This document shows positions 20,027-55,457 of a stretch of DNA of 60,473 bases, in pieces. The position numbers and the translations under genes are program-made. The notes under the pieces are model-generated. The model was not told where the DNA came from. It did no database searches and saw nothing but the letters and a program-made list of their open reading frames with translations. This DNA comes from an uncultured archaeon. Lineage in GTDB: Archaea; EX4484-52; JAADEF01. Each line of letters opens with the position of its first letter. Within the stretch, counting starts at the first letter, position 1. The DNA is taken from NCBI GenBank assembly GCA_964407715.1, contig CAYOWP010000007.1, forward strand, positions 1 to 60,473. The letters run 5' to 3'.

Positions 20027-22342
20027 ATGGGTTATAATATCTCCTTACAAAAGTTTATGGAAAAAAGTGCAGAAAGAAAGATTTTTGAGGAAAGTGATAA
20101 ATACCTTAACATACCTTATATTAAACCTAACACAATAGAATTGAGAGAATACCAAAAGAACATAATTGAGAGCATTGATAACAAGAATACACTTGTAGTT
20201 TTACCTACAGGATTAGGAAAAACAATTATTGCTGTTATACTTTCTGCAATGAGATTAAATAGATTTCCATCCAGCAATATCCTTGTTTTAGCACCTACAA
20301 AACCTTTGGTTAATCAACATGCACAATCTTTCAGGAATTTGATGGATTTGCCAGATGATATGTTCATTGTAATTTCAGGAAGTACACAGAAGAGCAAGAG
20401 GAAGGAGTTATGGAACAAGAAAGGCATATTTTTTGCAACGCCACAAACCGTTAAAAATGATTTGGAAGATGGAATTGTAAATTTAAATAATTTTTCTTTG
20501 TTGGTATTTGATGAGGCTCATAGATCAGTGGGAGATTATGCTTATACCTATATTGCAAGAGAATACATATCAAAAGCGCAAAATCCGTTGATATTAGGTC
20601 TGACAGCATCTCCGGGAGGAGAGGTAGAGAAAATAGGGAGTGTGGTTGGGAATCTCTTTATAGAGAATGTTGAAGTGAGAAGTTATAATGATCCAGATGT
20701 TTTACCTTATATTAAGCGAATAGAGATAGAGTGGATAAAGATAGAGATGCCTCCTGAATTAAAACAAGTCGATGCTCTGCTTAAAGCAGCAATGAAAAAG
20801 AGGGTGGATTATCTTTTGGAAAAAGGTTTTCTTTCAAGTAGGACAATCTCGAAAAAGGAACTTCTCGAGATGCAAAAAAGACTTATAACGAGATTAAAAG
20901 AAGAAAAGAGCGATTTTCTTTTTTATGTCCAGACCATTGTGGGCCAATTAGTAAAAATAAATTATGCATTAGAGTTGGTTGAGACACAAGGGTTAAAGCA
21001 GTTTGTTGATTATTATGAGAAGTTAAGAGAGGAGAAAAAAACAAAATCTTCAATGGATCTTCTGGATGATGATGATTTTACTACCGCATATCTTATTGCA
21101 AAGAAAAATGTTGAGAAAGGGATAATTCATCCAAAACTTAAAAAGATAAGGGAGATAGTAAATAAGGAGATGAAAAACGAGAAAAGCAAGATGATAATTT
21201 TTACGCAGTATGTTGAGACGGCTAAGTTGATAACCGAAGAGATCTCTGATTTAGGAGCAGTATTATTTATTGGTCAAAGGAGAGGATACACTCAAAAGAA
21301 ACAAATGGAGATAATTAAGAAATTTAGTGAGGGAAAATACAGGATTTTGGTTGCTACATCTGTGGCTGAGGAGGGTTTGGATATTCCTGCAGTGGATTAT
21401 GTGGTGTTTTATGAACCTATACCAAGTGAGATAAGATCTATACAGAGAAGAGGAAGAACAGGAAGGTTTGATAAAGGGAAAGTAATAATATTGATGACAC
21501 AAAAATCCTTAGATGAGGCATATTACTGGGCATCCATTGCAAAAGAGAGAAATATGAGAAGAACATTACATCTTCTAAAAAGGATGTTTTCAGAAAAGAC
21601 AAAAAAGGTTTCTGAAAAGAAAGTGCCAGAGAATATTAAAAAGGTGGAGACGCTGCAGGCATATACAAAAGAGAAAAAGATTCCAGTAGTTTTTGATTAT
21701 AGGGAGCAGAAAATATATGAGATATTTAAGAGTATTGTTAAGGAAAATGAAAAGACAATTATACCACAAAAATCAAATCTTTCTATGGGGGATGTTATAA
21801 TAAATAATAGGATTGTGATAGAGAGGAAAAGTGCAGAGGATTTTTTGAATTCTATTATTGATGGGAGATTATTCTCTCAGTTAGACAAATTGATATATAC
21901 TTATGAATTGCCTATTTTGATTGTCGAGGGAAATTTATATGATGCCATTAAATTCCGTGAGATTCATGAGAATGTAATAAGAGGAGTGCTAAGCAAGATT
22001 GTTATAGATTATAATGTCCCCATTATATGGACAAGAGATGTAAATGATAGTGCTCAGTATATTTATCTAATTGCAAGAAGAGAAATGGAAGAGAATAAAA
22101 AATCTGAGTCGATTAAGATAATGAAAAAATCTGATAAGTTAGAGAAGCAAATTGAGGTTGTGGTTAGTGCGTTACCCTCTATCAATGTTACACTTGCAAA
22201 AAGAATATTAAAGAAGTTTAAAACAATAAGGAACTTAGCAAATGCAAAGATAGAGCAGCTTAAGAGTGTAGAGGGAATAGGAGATAAAAAGGCAGAAAAG
22301 ATATATAGCATCTTTAATACTGAATACAAAGATGAGACATGA
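20027..22342 (+). CDS. hef: Hef helicase-nuclease (FANCM/XPF-like)
   Basis: PTGLGKT, DEAH, TAS, QRRGRTGR, the ERCC4 nuclease motif ERKS..DF..SI.DGRL and a C-terminal HhH. Confidence 0.95.
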   Translation: MGYNISLQKFMEKSAERKIFEESDKYLNIPYIKPNTIELREYQKNIIESIDNKNTLVVLPTGLGKTIIAVILSAMRLNRFPSSNILVLAPTKPLVNQHAQSFRNLMDLPDDMFIVISGSTQKSKRKELWNKKGIFFATPQTVKNDLEDGIVNLNNFSLLVFDEAHRSVGDYAYTYIAREYISKAQNPLILGLTASPGGEVEKIGSVVGNLFIENVEVRSYNDPDVLPYIKRIEIEWIKIEMPPELKQVDALLKAAMKKRVDYLLEKGFLSSRTISKKELLEMQKRLITRLKEEKSDFLFYVQTIVGQLVKINYALELVETQGLKQFVDYYEKLREEKKTKSSMDLLDDDDFTTAYLIAKKNVEKGIIHPKLKKIREIVNKEMKNEKSKMIIFTQYVETAKLITEEISDLGAVLFIGQRRGYTQKKQMEIIKKFSEGKYRILVATSVAEEGLDIPAVDYVVFYEPIPSEIRSIQRRGRTGRFDKGKVIILMTQKSLDEAYYWASIAKERNMRRTLHLLKRMFSEKTKKVSEKKVPENIKKVETLQAYTKEKKIPVVFDYREQKIYEIFKSIVKENEKTIIPQKSNLSMGDVIINNRIVIERKSAEDFLNSIIDGRLFSQLDKLIYTYELPILIVEGNLYDAIKFREIHENVIRGVLSKIVIDYNVPIIWTRDVNDSAQYIYLIARREMEENKKSESIKIMKKSDKLEKQIEVVVSALPSINVTLAKRILKKFKTIRNLANAKIEQLKSVEGIGDKKAEKIYSIFNTEYKDET

Positions 22343-52445: not shown

Positions 52446-52799
52446 GATATTGTCCAATAATTCTTATCAACAAAAAATTTGTTAACGGAAAACATATCCT
52501 TTTTAAAGAGCGACATCGGAGCAGTTAAGCTTCTAAGGCGTTTAGGAAGCAACTAAACCTTAATGAAGGCTAACATGCTGTAAGACCTCTGCAAGAGCGA
52601 ATTTCTCCCGTTAACAAACCATTAATAAATTTTGTTAACTGGAAACACAACCTTTTTAAAGAGTACATTAGAGCAGTAAACCTTATAAAGCATCTATATG
52701 TAGAATACTCCAAGGCAGGTTAGCATGCTGTAGGACCTTTGGAGAATTGAATTTCTCCCGTTAACAAATTTTATTAAAAGAGAATTATTGGACAAAATT
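52446..52799. mobile_element. MITE F, two full tandem palindromic units between eroded TIRs
   Basis: ATTGTCCAATAATTCT ... AGAATTATTGGACAA with units at 52480-52616 and 52633-52766. The terminal GG/CC and the TSD are not recognisable. Confidence 0.82.
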
Positions 52800-52863
52800 T
52801 CATTACATTTTCATTCTGAATTCATCGTTTATTTTTTAAAGTTATTTCACAATTATTTTTTCT

Positions 52864-53976
52864 ATGAATAGAAAAGGAAATCTTAGGGGCAATACTTTAT
52901 TGTATATTTCTTATATAATTTTTATAATTGTTATCTTTTTATTGGTTTCTGAGATTATGACTCTAAAGAATGAGTTGGCTCTAAGAGATACAGAGCTTGA
53001 AAAATGTAAAAGAAATATAGATGAGTATAAAAGATATACCTCTTCTCTTGAAGAAAAAATAATATCATTAAACGAGTCCTTAAATAACCTCTCATCGAGA
53101 TATAGAGAACTTGAGGAATATATTTCAAGTACAATAAAAGAGCTGAGATTATATGAAGAGGAAATAAATGAGGCACTTGTGTGGTTTAAAGAAAATGCAA
53201 ATTTACAAAATAGTGGATTAAGTGAATATCAAATGAATCTTCTTGTTAAGAGATGTTTAAAGGTCGAGGATGATTATTGCGAGATAAATTTAGGTTGCAT
53301 TTATTTATTAAATGATGAAGTATATGGATTTCACTATAAATATGACAATCAAACCACAAATAAAAGCGAGAATTTATTATCGCTTAGAGAATTTGTTGAG
53401 AAGGGCGGAGGAGATTGCGAGGATTATGCCTTTTTCTATAAAGCAGAATTTAATTATCTAAAAAACTACTGTTTTAATAAAGGAATCAAAAATATACTTT
53501 TAAGAACTTATTCATCCCAAAAATTTCCTGAGAGTAAAGAGCAAGAGAGCAATTTCTTTTTAGACAATGCAAAAACATGGTATGTACCAGATGTTTATGA
53601 GAACATTTTCTATAACTATAATCACATATTTGTTGTATGCGGAAATATGGAAGATACAGAAGGAAAGTCTGGGGGACATTGTGTTGTTGCATTAGCACAG
53701 GAAACTATCACAACTCCATACGATTTAGAGAATGAAAATGCGATACTCATTGAACCACAAACAGGAGCTTACCTTGGCAAAATAGGAAGAGAGATTGCTC
53801 TCTATAGACATGGGACATGGGAGGAGCTTAAAGACAAGAAAGGGCTATACTATATCATTTCGGATGAGGATCAATATCTCTATCTTTTTACATTAGAGAA
53901 ATGGACATCATATAAGGAATTTAAGGAAAAGATAGAAGATGCATTTAGAAGATATCGGGAGTTATATTTTGAATAA
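52864..53976 (+). CDS. Membrane-anchored coiled-coil protein with transglutaminase-like domain
   Basis: N-terminal TM, coiled coil, then GGDCEDYA, GHCVVA and IEPQTG. Confidence 0.75.
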   Translation: MNRKGNLRGNTLLYISYIIFIIVIFLLVSEIMTLKNELALRDTELEKCKRNIDEYKRYTSSLEEKIISLNESLNNLSSRYRELEEYISSTIKELRLYEEEINEALVWFKENANLQNSGLSEYQMNLLVKRCLKVEDDYCEINLGCIYLLNDEVYGFHYKYDNQTTNKSENLLSLREFVEKGGGDCEDYAFFYKAEFNYLKNYCFNKGIKNILLRTYSSQKFPESKEQESNFFLDNAKTWYVPDVYENIFYNYNHIFVVCGNMEDTEGKSGGHCVVALAQETITTPYDLENENAILIEPQTGAYLGKIGREIALYRHGTWEELKDKKGLYYIISDEDQYLYLFTLEKWTSYKEFKEKIEDAFRRYRELYFE

Positions 53977-53985
53977 GAAAAAGGG

Positions 53986-54105
53986 TGTTGGCAGCGTCGC
54001 CCTGTTCCCACCCCCGCCGGGGCAGTACTTAGGGCATCGCTGGCGGGCTTAACTTCCGGGTTCGGGATGGGTCCGGGTGTTTCCCCGCCGCTATGGCCGC
54101 CAACA
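53986..54105 (-). rRNA. rrf: 5S rRNA (stand-alone)
   Basis: GC-rich 120 nt. The reverse complement reads GGCCATAGCGGCGGGGAAACACCCGGACCCATCCCGAACCCGGAAGTTAAGCC...AAGTACTG, with terminal helix TGTTGGC/GCCAACA. Confidence 0.96.
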
Positions 54106-54161
54106 AATATTAGTTATAAAAAGAGATTTTTAAAATACTTTTTTTCAGAAATTTCAGTTCT

Positions 54162-54412
54162 GGCATTGCACAATAATTCTTTATTGTTAAGCGGAAACAT
54201 ATCCTCTCAAAGAAGCGCATGAGAGCAGTTAACCCTTTTGAATAGGGCTATGCTTCCCGTTAACAAATTATTTTGAATAGATAAAAATTGTTAACCGGAA
54301 AAAATCGCTATTACTACAGGTTTTGTAGCATGTCATCTTTAAGATTCGCTACTTTAATGCGCTTCTTTAAAAGGATGCTCAGCTTAACAATAAAGAATTA
54401 TTGGACAACGCC
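54162..54412. mobile_element. MITE G (251 bp), left arm of a composite around relE-antitoxin
   Basis: GGCATTGCACAATAATTCT ... AGAATTATTGGACAACGCC, flanked by TCAGTTCT on the left and AACATCAAA on the right. Confidence 0.92.
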
Positions 54413-54416
54413 AACA

Positions 54417-54674
54417 TCAAATCCTTTTATAAACCCTTGACCTTTTGTCTATTAAGACAATATAAATGACCTTCTCTTTTTCATCTATTTTATAAATTAT
54501 CCTAAATTTGCCAATCCTTATTCTATAAAGAGAGTCAAACCCTCTTAACTTTTTGCCAATGTATGGGCTGTGCTTTAAAGACAGAATAGCTTTATGAATT
54601 CTATAAAGAATATTTTTATCTTTTATGCTTTTCATATCCCTCTGGGCAGATTTCAATATTTTTAACTCATACAT
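54417..54674 (-). CDS. relE: RelE/ParE family toxin
   Basis: KKLRG..LYRIRIGKFRIIY.IDE..VIYIV..DKRSRVY. Confidence 0.92.
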   Translation of the reverse strand: MYELKILKSAQRDMKSIKDKNILYRIHKAILSLKHSPYIGKKLRGFDSLYRIRIGKFRIIYKIDEKEKVIYIVLIDKRSRVYKRI

Positions 54675-54858
54675 CTATTTTCAACTCCTTTTTAGCAAAT
54701 TCTTCATAATCATCATATTCTTCGTTCTCAATTTCCTTTAATCTTTTCTCTATTATGATTTCTTCATCTAAAAATTCCCTTATAACTTGAGTTAAGTTGT
54801 CAATTTTCCTTTCTAATCTCTCTATATCCTCCTTAGTTGCATACCTTACTCGAGACAT
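54667..54858 (-). CDS. Cognate antitoxin (RelB-like)
   Basis: 63 aa, acidic C-terminus, overlaps the relE start. Confidence 0.75.
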   Translation of the reverse strand: MSRVRYATKEDIERLERKIDNLTQVIREFLDEEIIIEKRLKEIENEEYDDYEEFAKKELKIDV

Positions 54859-54924
54859 TCTACCACCTTATAAAATATAGTTCATCTGAACTTTAAAAAT
54901 GTTGTTTAATGAAAAACATCAAAG

Positions 54925-55078
54925 GGCATTGCACAAAAATTCTTTATTGTTAAGCAGAAATTTAACGCGCAAATAGCACTTATAACGGTAATCGCATTAG
55001 CTCTACAAGATTCGCTACTTTAATGCGCTTCTTTAAAAGGATGCTCAGCTTAACAATAAAGAATTATTGGACAATGCC
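54925..55078. mobile_element. MITE H (154 bp), right arm of the composite
   Basis: GGCATTGCACAAAAATTCT ... AGAATTATTGGACAATGCC, flanked by AACATCAAA(G) on the left and TCAGTTCT on the right. The last ~70 bp are essentially identical to MITE G. Confidence 0.92.
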
Positions 55079-55149
55079 TCAGTTCTTGGGCTTTGTATCT
55101 TTGTATAATAGCACTTTTATCAAATAAAACTTAATTATCATCTGGATTA

Positions 55150-55223
55150 CGAGCCCGGTGGGATTTGAACCCACGACAACCCGGTCCGAAGCCGGGCACT
55201 CTACCAAGCTGAGTTACGGGCCC
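55150..55223 (-). tRNA. tRNA-Arg(TCG)
   Basis: Reverse-complement cloverleaf with anticodon arm CCCGG-CTTCGGA-CCGGG. Confidence 0.96.
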
Positions 55224-55281
55224 ATATTTACAAATTTAATTTTTGGATTTATAAAAATATTTCCACTTCTTTATAAGATTA

Positions 55282-55416
55282 GGCATTGTTCGATAATCCT
55301 TTATTGTTAAGCGGAAACATAACCTCTCACAGAAGCACATGAGAGCAGTTAACCCCTTGAATAGAGCTCTGATTCCCGTTAACCAAATTTCTCAAAATAT
55401 ATTATTGGACAATGCT
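55282..55416. mobile_element. MITE I (135 bp)
   Basis: GGCATTGTTCGATAATCCT ... ATTATTGGACAATGCT with flanking direct repeat TTATAAGATTA / TTGTAAGATTA. Confidence 0.87.
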
Positions 55417-55457
55417 TTGTAAGATTACTTTTTTAAATAATTCTTTCTTTCATTATA

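Follow-up and report, generated by a model that had tools for sequence, protein, structure and literature searches.

The 917-bp block at 54162-55078 is most likely a non-autonomous compound element in which two direct, non-identical MITEs (G and H) surround an intact toxin-antitoxin (TA) operon. Positions are those of the whole 60,473-nt stretch of DNA analysed (the window); direct reading of the window returned every coordinate of an earlier sequence-only reading of this DNA unchanged. An outer direct repeat (a) abuts the outer tips of the two MITEs and an inner repeat (b) abuts the inner tips, giving the order a-MITE-b...b-MITE-a, in a locus composed as follows:

53986-54104, minus strand: 5S rRNA gene, to the left of the insertion site (Rfam RF00001, 89.3 bits)
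54154-54161: outer direct repeat a, left copy, TCAGTTCT, abutting MITE G (exact in-register 8-mer with 55079-55086)
54162-54412, plus strand: MITE G, 251 bp, 250-bp subfamily, right tip ...ACGCC (direct reading and comparison)
54341-54408, plus strand: 68-nt tract equal to 55007-55074 of MITE H, candidate crossover or conversion tract (exact identity)
54413-54422: inner repeat b1, AACATCAAAT, the toxin gene's native 3' terminus with its stop codon (from comparison of the toxin ends of relatives)
54417-54674, minus strand: toxin of the RelE/ParE superfamily, 85 aa, intact (PF05016, E 3.1e-12)
54667-54858, minus strand: putative antitoxin, 63 aa, overlapping the toxin start by 8 nt (ORF)
54576-54795, minus strand: replaced operon centre, comprising toxin residues 1-33 and antitoxin residues 22-63 (drop in identity between contigs C7, that of the window, and C15)
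54915-54924: inner repeat b2, AACATCAAAG, the displaced copy, next to MITE H (direct reading)
54925-55078, plus strand: MITE H, 154 bp, 157-bp subfamily, right tip ...ATGCC (direct reading)
55079-55086: outer direct repeat a, right copy, TCAGTTCT (direct reading)
55149-55224, minus strand: tRNA-Arg(TCG), right neighbour (ARAGORN, Rfam)
55282-55416, plus strand: third MITE, behind tRNA-Arg and independent of G and H (own duplication TAAGATTA)

The toxin stop codon (54417-54419) lies inside inner repeat b1. At the right tip of the MITE at 55282-55416, its duplication TAAGATTA is shifted by 2-3 nt.

The swapped flanks described in the sequence-only reading are present in register, with the outer repeat matching at 8 of 8 positions and the inner repeat at 9 of 10. 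The inner comparison sets the last 10 bases before H against the first 10 bases after G, with a single mismatch; read as a 10-bp duplication in this way, the 1-bp offset at H that had been attached to the inner repeat vanishes. As had also been noted, the two flanks of G do not match each other, and nor do those of H (at least 7 mismatches at 8, 9 or 10 bp). We estimated the expectation by chance from 3,000,000 random flank pairs drawn from the same genome, among which an exact in-register 8-mer occurred at a frequency of 5.7e-5, a 10-mer with at most one mismatch at 1.2e-4, and a match by any criterion used at 5.4e-4 for each pair. The swapped-flank pattern is real and is not due to chance. 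The 127 MITE ends of the genome contain only two other exact swapped-flank matches, which lie in A/T-rich flanks and do not exceed the number expected by chance.

Cassette edges are indeed places where MITEs insert; the copy at C5:17585-17743 sits exactly at a cassette boundary in the array behind cdc48 (see below). Such landings would be in keeping with two independent insertions beside a resident TA operon whose flanks match by chance or through a hot spot. The joint chance of the two matches, however, is approximately (5.4e-4)^2, the duplications of the other MITE copies lack any consensus from which a 9-10-bp hot spot could result, and relatives carry the TA operon elsewhere and not at the window locus. 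We regard independent insertion as very improbable.

G and H belong to a family of 89-390 bp elements with terminal inverted repeats and no transposase-sized ORF inside. The family has the properties of MITEs: inverted ends, no coded transposase, many copies and target duplications. Ends with at most one mismatch number 81 in this genome versus 0-1 in each of 40 relatives; judged by these counts, the family is specific to this genome (lineage-specific). Target duplications of 8-10 bp with at most one mismatch are present in 26 of 47 paired copies: 20 at 9 bp, which is the family norm, 4 at 10 bp, and 2 at 8 bp, the rarest length, each with a mismatch. Lengths of 8 and 10 bp are therefore ones that the family makes. 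The MITE tip matches the IS903B inverted repeat (PMC10569121) at 14 of 18 positions in the family consensus and at 16 of 18 in the right-hand copy on C15, a resemblance only, and the 9-bp target duplication is like the IS903B direct repeat printed in the same source.

Searches of the 92%-complete assembly gave 0 matches to DDE_Tnp_1 (PF01609), for which control genomes gave matches, and 0 matches to the IS6/IS240-type transposase (PF13610). The cognate transposase may be unassembled or on another replicon. An autonomous element was sought in the DNA inside 23 unpaired MITE ends, which holds no transposase, and none lies near the single tip-like matches in the relatives G003 and G022. Scanned against genome contigs, a 17-nt tip gave at least 88 single, unrelated matches, as expected by chance, the exception being a MITE-like element in one bacterial MAG (L032); a 25-nt degenerate tip gave 0 matches in viral contigs.

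By its profile match (47.3 bits to PF05016 versus a cut-off of 23) and gene order, the operon is classed as a type II TA system of the RelE/ParE superfamily with a small overlapping upstream partner gene. The antitoxin had no match among Pfam and NCBIfam models. A model of the antitoxin-toxin complex scored an ipSAE of 0.80, compared with 0.01 for the best of 3 controls; among solved complexes 51 of 78 attain that mark, and among mismatched pairs 2 of 108. Between the three runs, no fewer than 88% of contacts are the same, and the partner pLDDT is 78 or higher. The model supports the prediction that the antitoxin binds the toxin, with a score that may reflect memorised structures, like complexes having been solved. 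Metagenome contigs searched by means of an alignment of the toxin gave 15 loci, all at most 51% identical and none with a MITE tip.

A second MITE-TA-MITE unit, at C15:14144-15152, repeats the b1 and b2 junctions of the window. Its tip beside b1 is likewise the rare ...ACGCC (3 occurrences in the genome; the common tip rests on a single nucleotide), an extra G again adjoins b2, and an outer duplication is absent. The TA end blocks of the two composites are 94-95% identical, whereas their MITE bodies are only ~78-80% identical. With the TA ends conserved and the MITE bodies diverged, it follows that the TA operon and the adjoining tips travel and the bodies do not. Since the inner junctions are the same in the C15 unit, the b...b junction is inherited and need not have originated at the window locus.

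The toxin is 71% identical to its C15 copy, with all differences but one in residues 1-34. The operon centre (54576-54795) is 48% identical between C7 and C15, versus 94-95% in the flanking blocks, and 72% identical between C15 and the relative G001. What distinguishes the two TA copies is precisely the predicted toxin-antitoxin interface, a divergence that would be expected if a cell holds two addictive modules that have to avoid cross-neutralisation.

Recurrence of the whole unit with its own MITEs and a fresh duplication is not what the C15 copy presents, as the bodies differ. This bears on block transposition, in which a transposase supplied in trans used the outer ends to move a pre-existing MITE-b-TA-b-MITE unit whole, making the 8-bp TCAGTTCT duplication and leaving b...b as a relic of the building of the unit. 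The outer repeat abuts both outer tips exactly, like a target duplication, the architecture exists in two copies with the same inner junctions, the tips and 9-bp duplications are like those of IS903B, and movement of MITE-driven compound elements has been captured in bacteria, as described for TIME-COMP (PMC4133298). Against this, the identities of bodies and end blocks show that the two units are not simply block copies, the C15 copy has no outer duplication, 8 bp is the length that the family makes least often, and the assembly contains no transposase. We consider block transposition unlikely.

The positions of b1 and b2 argue for an earlier step. Inner repeat b1 holds the last codon and the stop of the toxin, placed as in relatives, and is therefore the native end; b2, upstream of the antitoxin promoter, must then be a displaced copy. 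A displaced b2 in turn requires a past MITE insertion into a TA cassette whose head was linked to its own tail, as a circle or as a tandem. Homology to the upstream regions of other cassettes stops a few bases before b2.

G and H lie in direct orientation (positions 180-251 of G align plus/plus with 55007-55078 at 98.6%) and have two private variants in common, GGCATTGCAC and AGGATGCTCAGC, each with 2 occurrences in the genome, one per MITE; on both points the sequence-only reading holds. The inverted ends of G extend over 31 nt (GGCATTGCAC...AAGC versus the reverse complement of ...GCTT...ACGCC). Sequence comparison places G and H in different subfamilies, with different interiors, and their best other copies lie at C7:9869-10124 (91%) and C1:10227-10383 (87%), respectively. 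The longest exact stretch common to G and H is the 68-nt tract, which ranks 8th among 1081 MITE pairs, and the corresponding stretch in the MITE pair of the C15 composite is 77 nt and ranks 6th of 1081. Swapping partners within the 68-nt tract yields a-MITE-a and a 666-bp circle, b-MITE-b-TA. Once the crossover is undone in this way, the MITE of a-MITE-a has its own 8-bp duplication and the MITE of the circle its own 10-bp duplication.

An explanation that may well be correct, and to which we give a little less than even credence, is that homologous recombination inserted a circle of TA operon and MITE into a MITE already present, in the manner of an IS26 translocatable unit. The cassette would have come from a pool that this lineage keeps behind cdc48. 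A MITE would have transposed into it at the toxin stop codon, duplicating 10 bp, and the result would have been a small circle of ~666 bp consisting of the TA cassette and one MITE. An ordinary MITE with its own 8-bp duplication would already have been resident between the 5S rRNA and tRNA-Arg genes, and one homologous crossover in the 68-nt tract between the circle and this resident would amount to a Campbell-type integration, by which the flanks are swapped. The repeats, the second copy, the 68-nt tract, the different MITE bodies and the MITE-free context in relatives are observed; the circle, the crossover, its direction and any mobility at present are inferred. A reverse crossover between the direct MITEs would free the circle again, and a TA operon with adjoining MITE tips, if mobile at present, could hop among many resident MITEs without a transposase, driven by host recombination.

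Two features call for additions to circle integration. The private variant GGCATTGCAC at the left tips of G and H is outside the reach of a single crossover in the right-hand tract, so that an extra conversion or a common origin is needed. Among G, H and the left and right MITEs of the C15 composite (C15L and C15R), no pair fits the MITE of the circle in both composites, and several rounds of exchange are therefore assumed. The genealogy of MITE modules was considered as a discriminator between models and set aside, one right-hand variant occurring in 7 copies and thus not being diagnostic. C15L and C15R are 93.2% identical, and C12:2377 is as near to them (92.8%) as they are to one another.

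Capture of a TA mini-circle at the locus had been proposed in the sequence-only reading; the topology described there is supported, while the replicative cointegrate offered with it is not the simplest route because the interiors of G and H differ. Replicative transposition of a MITE from its residence at TCAGTTCT into the b site on a TA circle would produce a-MITE-b...b-MITE-a in one step and would leave the private variants common to G and H at both tips, and the IS5 family, notably IS903, is described in PMC11708052 as transposing both conservatively and replicatively with cointegrates. Such a cointegrate nevertheless predicts identical MITEs, so that with G at 251 bp and H at 154 bp a later replacement of ~150 nt is needed; to account for the same b...b junction on C15, either these 10 bp would have to be struck again or the unit copied as a block; and no transposase was found in the assembly. 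A cointegrate formed at this locus is in our judgement distinctly unlikely.

The relatives place the TA operon in a MITE-free context. The closest TA operons, in G001 and G003, are without MITEs and lie in a cassette array behind cdc48. The sequence-only reading would have yielded to relatives with this TA pair between 5S rRNA and tRNA-Arg and without MITEs; in the relatives the pair lies elsewhere. The 5S flank is present in 34 of 41 genomes, with differing sequence on its upstream side; in G001-G004 tRNA-Arg does not adjoin 5S, and there the flanks of the C15 composite are 67-74% identical or unmatched. The TA cassette of G001 lies between 61-nt direct repeats that are 93% identical, which makes loop-out circles of such cassettes plausible. 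Cassettes of the cdc48 array would loop out carrying a cdc48 fragment, and the composite has none, which counts against circle integration, since this presupposes a TA-only circle or tandem of 502 bp. Our search of the literature for a cdc48-linked cassette array found nothing relevant.

We also examined public runs, comprising four vent metagenomes as k=31 contigs, which break in MITEs and are unable to bridge the 68-nt tract. An empty site (54161 to 55079), a single-MITE allele and a MITE-free circle junction (~54924 to 54413) are absent from the 9 joints listed, and since k=31 contigs drop rare forms this is no evidence of absence. In run X1 the contig with the C7-type TA core has a depth of 14.6 (flanking contigs 16.9 and 18.5), and in run X2 a depth of 6.66 (flanking contigs 7.36 and 5.63); the similar depths of core and flanks fit one chromosomal copy. 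A 2170-nt contig of X1 has a 93-nt end identical to the interior of H (54944-55036) and a remainder that is not on this stretch, so H-like sequence is also linked to other DNA there.

These contigs bear on an assembly artefact, in which the locus consists of a simple MITE insertion at TCAGTTCT and a separate circular or tandem MITE and TA sequence, mis-threaded at the 68-nt tract. If the tract is threaded the other way, each MITE acquires a proper duplication, and the tract (68 nt; 77 nt in C15) is longer than the k of many assemblers. The assembly is flawed elsewhere, contig C9 duplicating C8:7161-50856 at 100%. The only X1 contig covering 54850, 54888 and 54891 has C15-type letters, and the b2-H junction of the window is thus without independent confirmation from X1 contigs. 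On the other hand, ordinary reads are longer than 68-77 nt, assembly arrived at this architecture on two occasions, each with its own MITEs and TA allele, and a 0.67-kb circle is too small for a replication function, yet the TA-core contigs stand at chromosomal depth in two runs from two studies. We hold an artefact to be quite improbable.

The kind of event proposed, a small circle joined into the chromosome, is known; the parts are unusual. In Tn903, inverted IS903 copies flank a resistance gene, unlike the window block, whose MITE copies are direct. The MITE family has a tip resembling that of IS903 (IS5 family) and, like it, makes 9-bp duplications; it is unlike IS903 in that the assembly has no DDE_Tnp_1 transposase. 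MITE-flanked integrons occur in Acinetobacter. Integron cassettes, too, measure ~0.5 kb, frequently encode TA pairs, occur in circular form and are arranged in arrays; here the cassettes are separated by repeats consisting of MITEs or 3' cdc48 fragments, and no attC-like site or IntI integrase came to notice in the sequences read. Integrons have been reported in Archaea (bioRxiv 10.1101/2022.02.06.479319).

As outlined in PMC7986276, the cargo of an IS26 translocatable unit and one flanking copy are thought to exit as a circle, which re-enters beside or into another copy, so that the outer flanks are those of the resident copy. The window block is like IS26/IS6 pseudo-compound transposons, as far as that account describes them, in having direct flanking elements around a small cargo. 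It differs in that the flanking elements are non-coding, non-identical MITEs of 154-251 bp, the family duplication is 9 bp and not 8, no IS6 transposase (PF13610) was found, the joining proposed is by host homologous recombination, and the host is an archaeon. In the TIME-COMP elements of Pseudomonas, two MITEs are described as mobilising the DNA between them with a transposase in trans (PMC4133298), and these elements, as portrayed there, are Tn3-derived, make 5-6-bp duplications and were caught by block transposition. Swapped flanks, TA cargo and MITE bodies that differ between copies set the window block apart from TIME-COMP. Type II TA pairs are described as passengers of Tn3-family transposons (PMC7157771), among them Tn4662a (PMC4133298), and the window block likewise has a type II TA pair inside a transposable unit; the Tn3-family carriers in these accounts are autonomous, with transposase and resolvase, unlike the MITE composite.

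The sequence-only reading had called these MITEs a gene-cassette mobilisation system. This is over-generalised, as the other swapped matches are at the level of chance and the sole cargo is one TA family at 2 loci. A broader proposal, which we think rather doubtful, is that small cassettes in this vent lineage, mostly TA, form a pool able to circularise and to integrate by host recombination through a carried homology handle, either a 3' cdc48 fragment or a MITE. If so, a cdc48-fragment handle would give an array behind cdc48 in which each cassette ends in a copy of the tail of the gene, and a MITE handle would give MITE-TA-MITE units at any of ~50 MITE sites. The lineage would then have an integron-like cassette economy without an integrase, with MITEs as portable landing pads.

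MITEs are usually seen as passive litter or as regulators. Here, in a small-genome hot-vent archaeon without a visible transposase, they carry a swapped-duplication footprint around a functional-looking gene pair. If the cycle of circle and crossover is real, a reduced genome would hold ~50 ready-made integration sites for small cassettes, and TA modules would spread and persist as cargo.

The RelE/ParE toxin-antitoxin (TA) operon between the 5S rRNA and tRNA-Arg genes is enclosed by two MITEs, G and H, in a block with the following features (a, outer direct repeat; b1 and b2, inner repeat at the toxin end and upstream of the antitoxin, respectively):

54154-61, outer repeat a, left copy, TCAGTTCT
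54162-54412, MITE G
54413-22, inner repeat b1, AACATCAAAT
54417-54674, minus strand, RelE/ParE toxin (PF05016, E 3e-12)
54667-54858, minus strand, antitoxin, 63 aa
54915-24, inner repeat b2, AACATCAAAG
54925-55078, MITE H
55079-86, outer repeat a, right copy, TCAGTTCT

Neither G nor H has a duplication of its own, and the swapped repeats described in the sequence-only reading are confirmed. Direct re-reading of the block gave an exact match to that description; the offset it reported arises only when the inner repeat is taken as 9 bp, the 10-mers being in register with one mismatch. The outer (8/8) and inner (9/10) matches are real duplications of lengths seen elsewhere in the family, since random flank pairs satisfy the duplication criteria at a rate of 5.4e-4. 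A third MITE (55282-55419) lies directly behind the tRNA-Arg gene, which is thus bracketed by this element and H. The third element has a duplication of its own, TAAGATTA, shifted by 2-3 nt at its right tip, which is irregular.

The MAG containing the window (contig C7) comprises 898 kb in 16 contigs (92% complete), and its LeuRS (archaeal equivalog TIGR00395, 930 bits) identifies the organism as archaeal. Among the public runs searched, the window stretch was found in hydrothermal-vent metagenomes only. Contig C9 (44,012 bp) duplicates C8:7161-50856 in reverse complement (100% identity over 43,696 bp), so the real genome size is ~855 kb.

The MITE family represents a genome-specific burst: its 17-nt tip, GGCATTGTCCAATAATT, occurs 81 times at ≤1 mismatch, whereas 40 relatives have 0-1 occurrences each. 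A search at ≤3 mismatches gave 140 ends; exclusion of 13 that represent an internal look-alike starting CAAATT left 127 ends and 47 paired elements (the C9/C8 duplication double-counts two of the 127 ends and affects none of the pairs). Duplications of 9 bp (≤1 mismatch) flank 20 of the 47 pairs, 10-bp duplications a further four and 8-bp duplications two; 12 pairs lack one, not counting the four MITEs of the two composites or the element behind tRNA-Arg. The MITE tip equals the IS903B inverted repeat at 14-16 of 18 positions, and the IS903B direct repeat is 9 bp (PMC10569121); we treat this resemblance as a lead only. DDE_Tnp_1 and IS240-type transposases were absent from the 92%-complete assembly, and no transposase lies inside the 23 unpaired MITE ends. 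Individual copies are mosaics built from a small set of internal modules with GTTAAC-like motifs at the borders, and at some loci long module chains follow a single tip (e.g. 52446-52870 of the window and C2:3706-4120). At C13:20753-21054 one MITE is inserted in the tip of another with a 9-bp duplication, GCATTGTCT, the two tips abutting at 21054. Short elements with the same 17-nt start tip and a similar inverted tip at their end occur in a Candidatus Hydrothermia bacterium MAG contig (L032:6917-7130 and 1-240) and may be a related family in another organism, or chance.

The inner repeats constrain how the block arose. Repeat b1 contains the last codon and stop of the toxin, in the same position as in relatives, and is thus the native copy; b2 is located slightly beyond the position at which the antitoxin upstream region loses its similarity to other cassettes, and is thus the displaced copy. 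A MITE therefore entered b while the promoter end was joined to the toxin end. Judged from the repeat arrangement, this joined state would have been a ~502-bp circle or a head-to-tail tandem. We obtained no derivation of the swapped pattern from linear events; on our reasoning, a replicative transposition confined to a single molecule, or one between sister chromosomes, would leave unlike inner flanks.

Toxin relatives occur in 22 of 42 genomes of the order. The two closest, in genomes G003 and G001, lie directly behind a CDC48-type ATPase gene and are free of MITE sequence; the G001 RelE cassette sits between two copies (93% identical) of the last ~61 nt of that gene. Behind cdc48 (TIGR01243) the present genome likewise has a cassette array, at C5:11775-19028 (L134:276-7529), and the relatives' arrays follow the same pattern (L118, G001:C129; L117, G003:C139). 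The five cassettes of the C5 array (small membrane ORFs, an AAA_14/DUF4143 ATPase, a methyltransferase, a PemK/MazF TA pair and a DUF2283/DUF4258 pair) all terminate in a 16-56-codon copy of the cdc48 tail, the older tails (…KESVERRK) being downstream of the one currently used (…KETINRRK), and a MITE lies exactly at one cassette boundary. The arrangement suggests that cassettes integrated one after another at the tail of cdc48; the arrays showed no integrase, and a limited literature search found no published description of such an array. In the G003 array the RelE cassette comes after the DUF2283/DUF4258 one. That position is empty here, and the RelE cassette is confined to two MITE composites. 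The two closest relatives thus carry the TA behind cdc48, and the arrangement that would have refuted the sequence-only reading, a MITE-free TA pair at the present locus, was not found.

The second composite (C15:14144-15152, read on the reverse strand) consists of a MITE (249 bp), AACATCAAAT, toxin and antitoxin, AACATCAAAGG and a MITE (249 bp), and has no outer duplication. Its TA end blocks are 94-95% identical to those of the window (145/153 and 112/119). The centres (54576-54795 of the window and C15:14521-14741) are unrelated, with 105/217 identical positions (48%) and sharp borders. Because the C15 centre resembles that of the same-genus relative G001 (157/217), the window allele is the replaced one. 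The replacement spans the codons for residues 1-33 of the toxin and 22-63 of the antitoxin. A model of the complex supports, short of proof, antitoxin binding to the toxin (ipSAE 0.80, a mark attained by 51/78 solved complexes and 2/108 mismatched pairs; best control 0.01), although similar complexes have been solved and the pass may derive from such known structures. Contacts agree between model runs at 88% or more, with partner pLDDT of at least 78. The replaced centre holds every one of the 18 listed contact residues of the antitoxin and 16 of the 26 of the toxin, and is predicted to encode the toxin-antitoxin interface.

MITE bodies are ~78-80% identical between the composites (194/241, 196/241, 120/154 and 121/154). 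Both composites have an extra G beside b2 and, beside b1, the rare tip ...ACGCC, which occurs three times genome-wide. Transposition of the entire block predicts co-inherited MITE bodies and would need added conversions; we consider it unlikely. Capture of a TA mini-circle by a replicative cointegrate, as the sequence-only reading proposed, predicts identical MITE copies and likewise needs added conversions. The swapped topology and the need for a circle (or tandem) stand, so that proposal is partly supported; the cointegrate step itself appears quite unlikely.

G and H belong to subfamilies of 250 bp and 157 bp, respectively, and share one exact 68-nt tract (54341-54408 = 55007-55074), which ranks 8th among 1081 MITE pairs; the C15 pair ranks 6th. 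Partner exchange within this tract yields two products. One is a simple MITE insertion at TCAGTTCT, flanked by an 8-bp duplication of its own and bearing the consensus tip; the other is a circle of 666 bp in which the MITE likewise has a duplication to itself, of 10 bp, and carries the ...ACGCC tip. Such a TA-MITE circle could have met a resident MITE at TCAGTTCT, where one homologous crossover within the tract (Campbell integration) would generate the swapped flanks. We favor this joining step, at slightly short of an even chance. It would account for the differing interiors of G and H and the tract they have in common, for the exchange of flanks, for a tip that moves along with the TA, for MITE bodies that are not inherited with it, and for the missing transposase. 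Against it, the two composites have no MITE in common, and the crossover explains neither the private left tip shared by G and H nor the source of a TA-only circle. The same partner-exchange logic fits a mis-threading of the 68-nt repeat in the assembly, which we judge very unlikely.

Two public vent metagenome runs, compared as k=31 contigs, bear on the junctions. A 10,377-nt contig in run X1 spans 53700-54200 with zero differences, and a 240-nt contig in run X2 (a strain with a few differences) spans 53951-54191, reaching just 30 nt into G; the left junction with G is thus present in two studies, although X1 may be the source sample. The run contigs are unable to bridge MITEs and gave no confirmation of the b2-H junction. 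Both TA alleles occur in both runs, the window-type core being at chromosomal depth in X1 (14.6 vs 16.9 and 18.5). In X1, the last 93 nt of a 2170-nt contig, which is likewise at chromosomal depth (16.9), match the H interior (54944-55036) without a difference; the remainder of that contig lies off the window stretch, linking an H-like interior to other DNA. The MAG holds no other copy sharing >68 nt with H, and the contig may derive from a MITE copy that escaped binning, or from a strain in which H has different surroundings.

Tn3-family transposons are known to carry TA passengers (PMC7157771), and MITEs are known from archaea (PMC10969869). A limited literature search, which is no proof of absence, did not turn up any archaeal TA between MITEs whose duplications are swapped. 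The unit falls outside the IS6 kind, since no IS6-type transposase was found, the two copies differ, and the duplication usual for the family is 9 bp. In its working it resembles an IS26 pseudo-compound transposon or translocatable unit (PMC7986276), or a MITE-driven compound element (PMC4133298).
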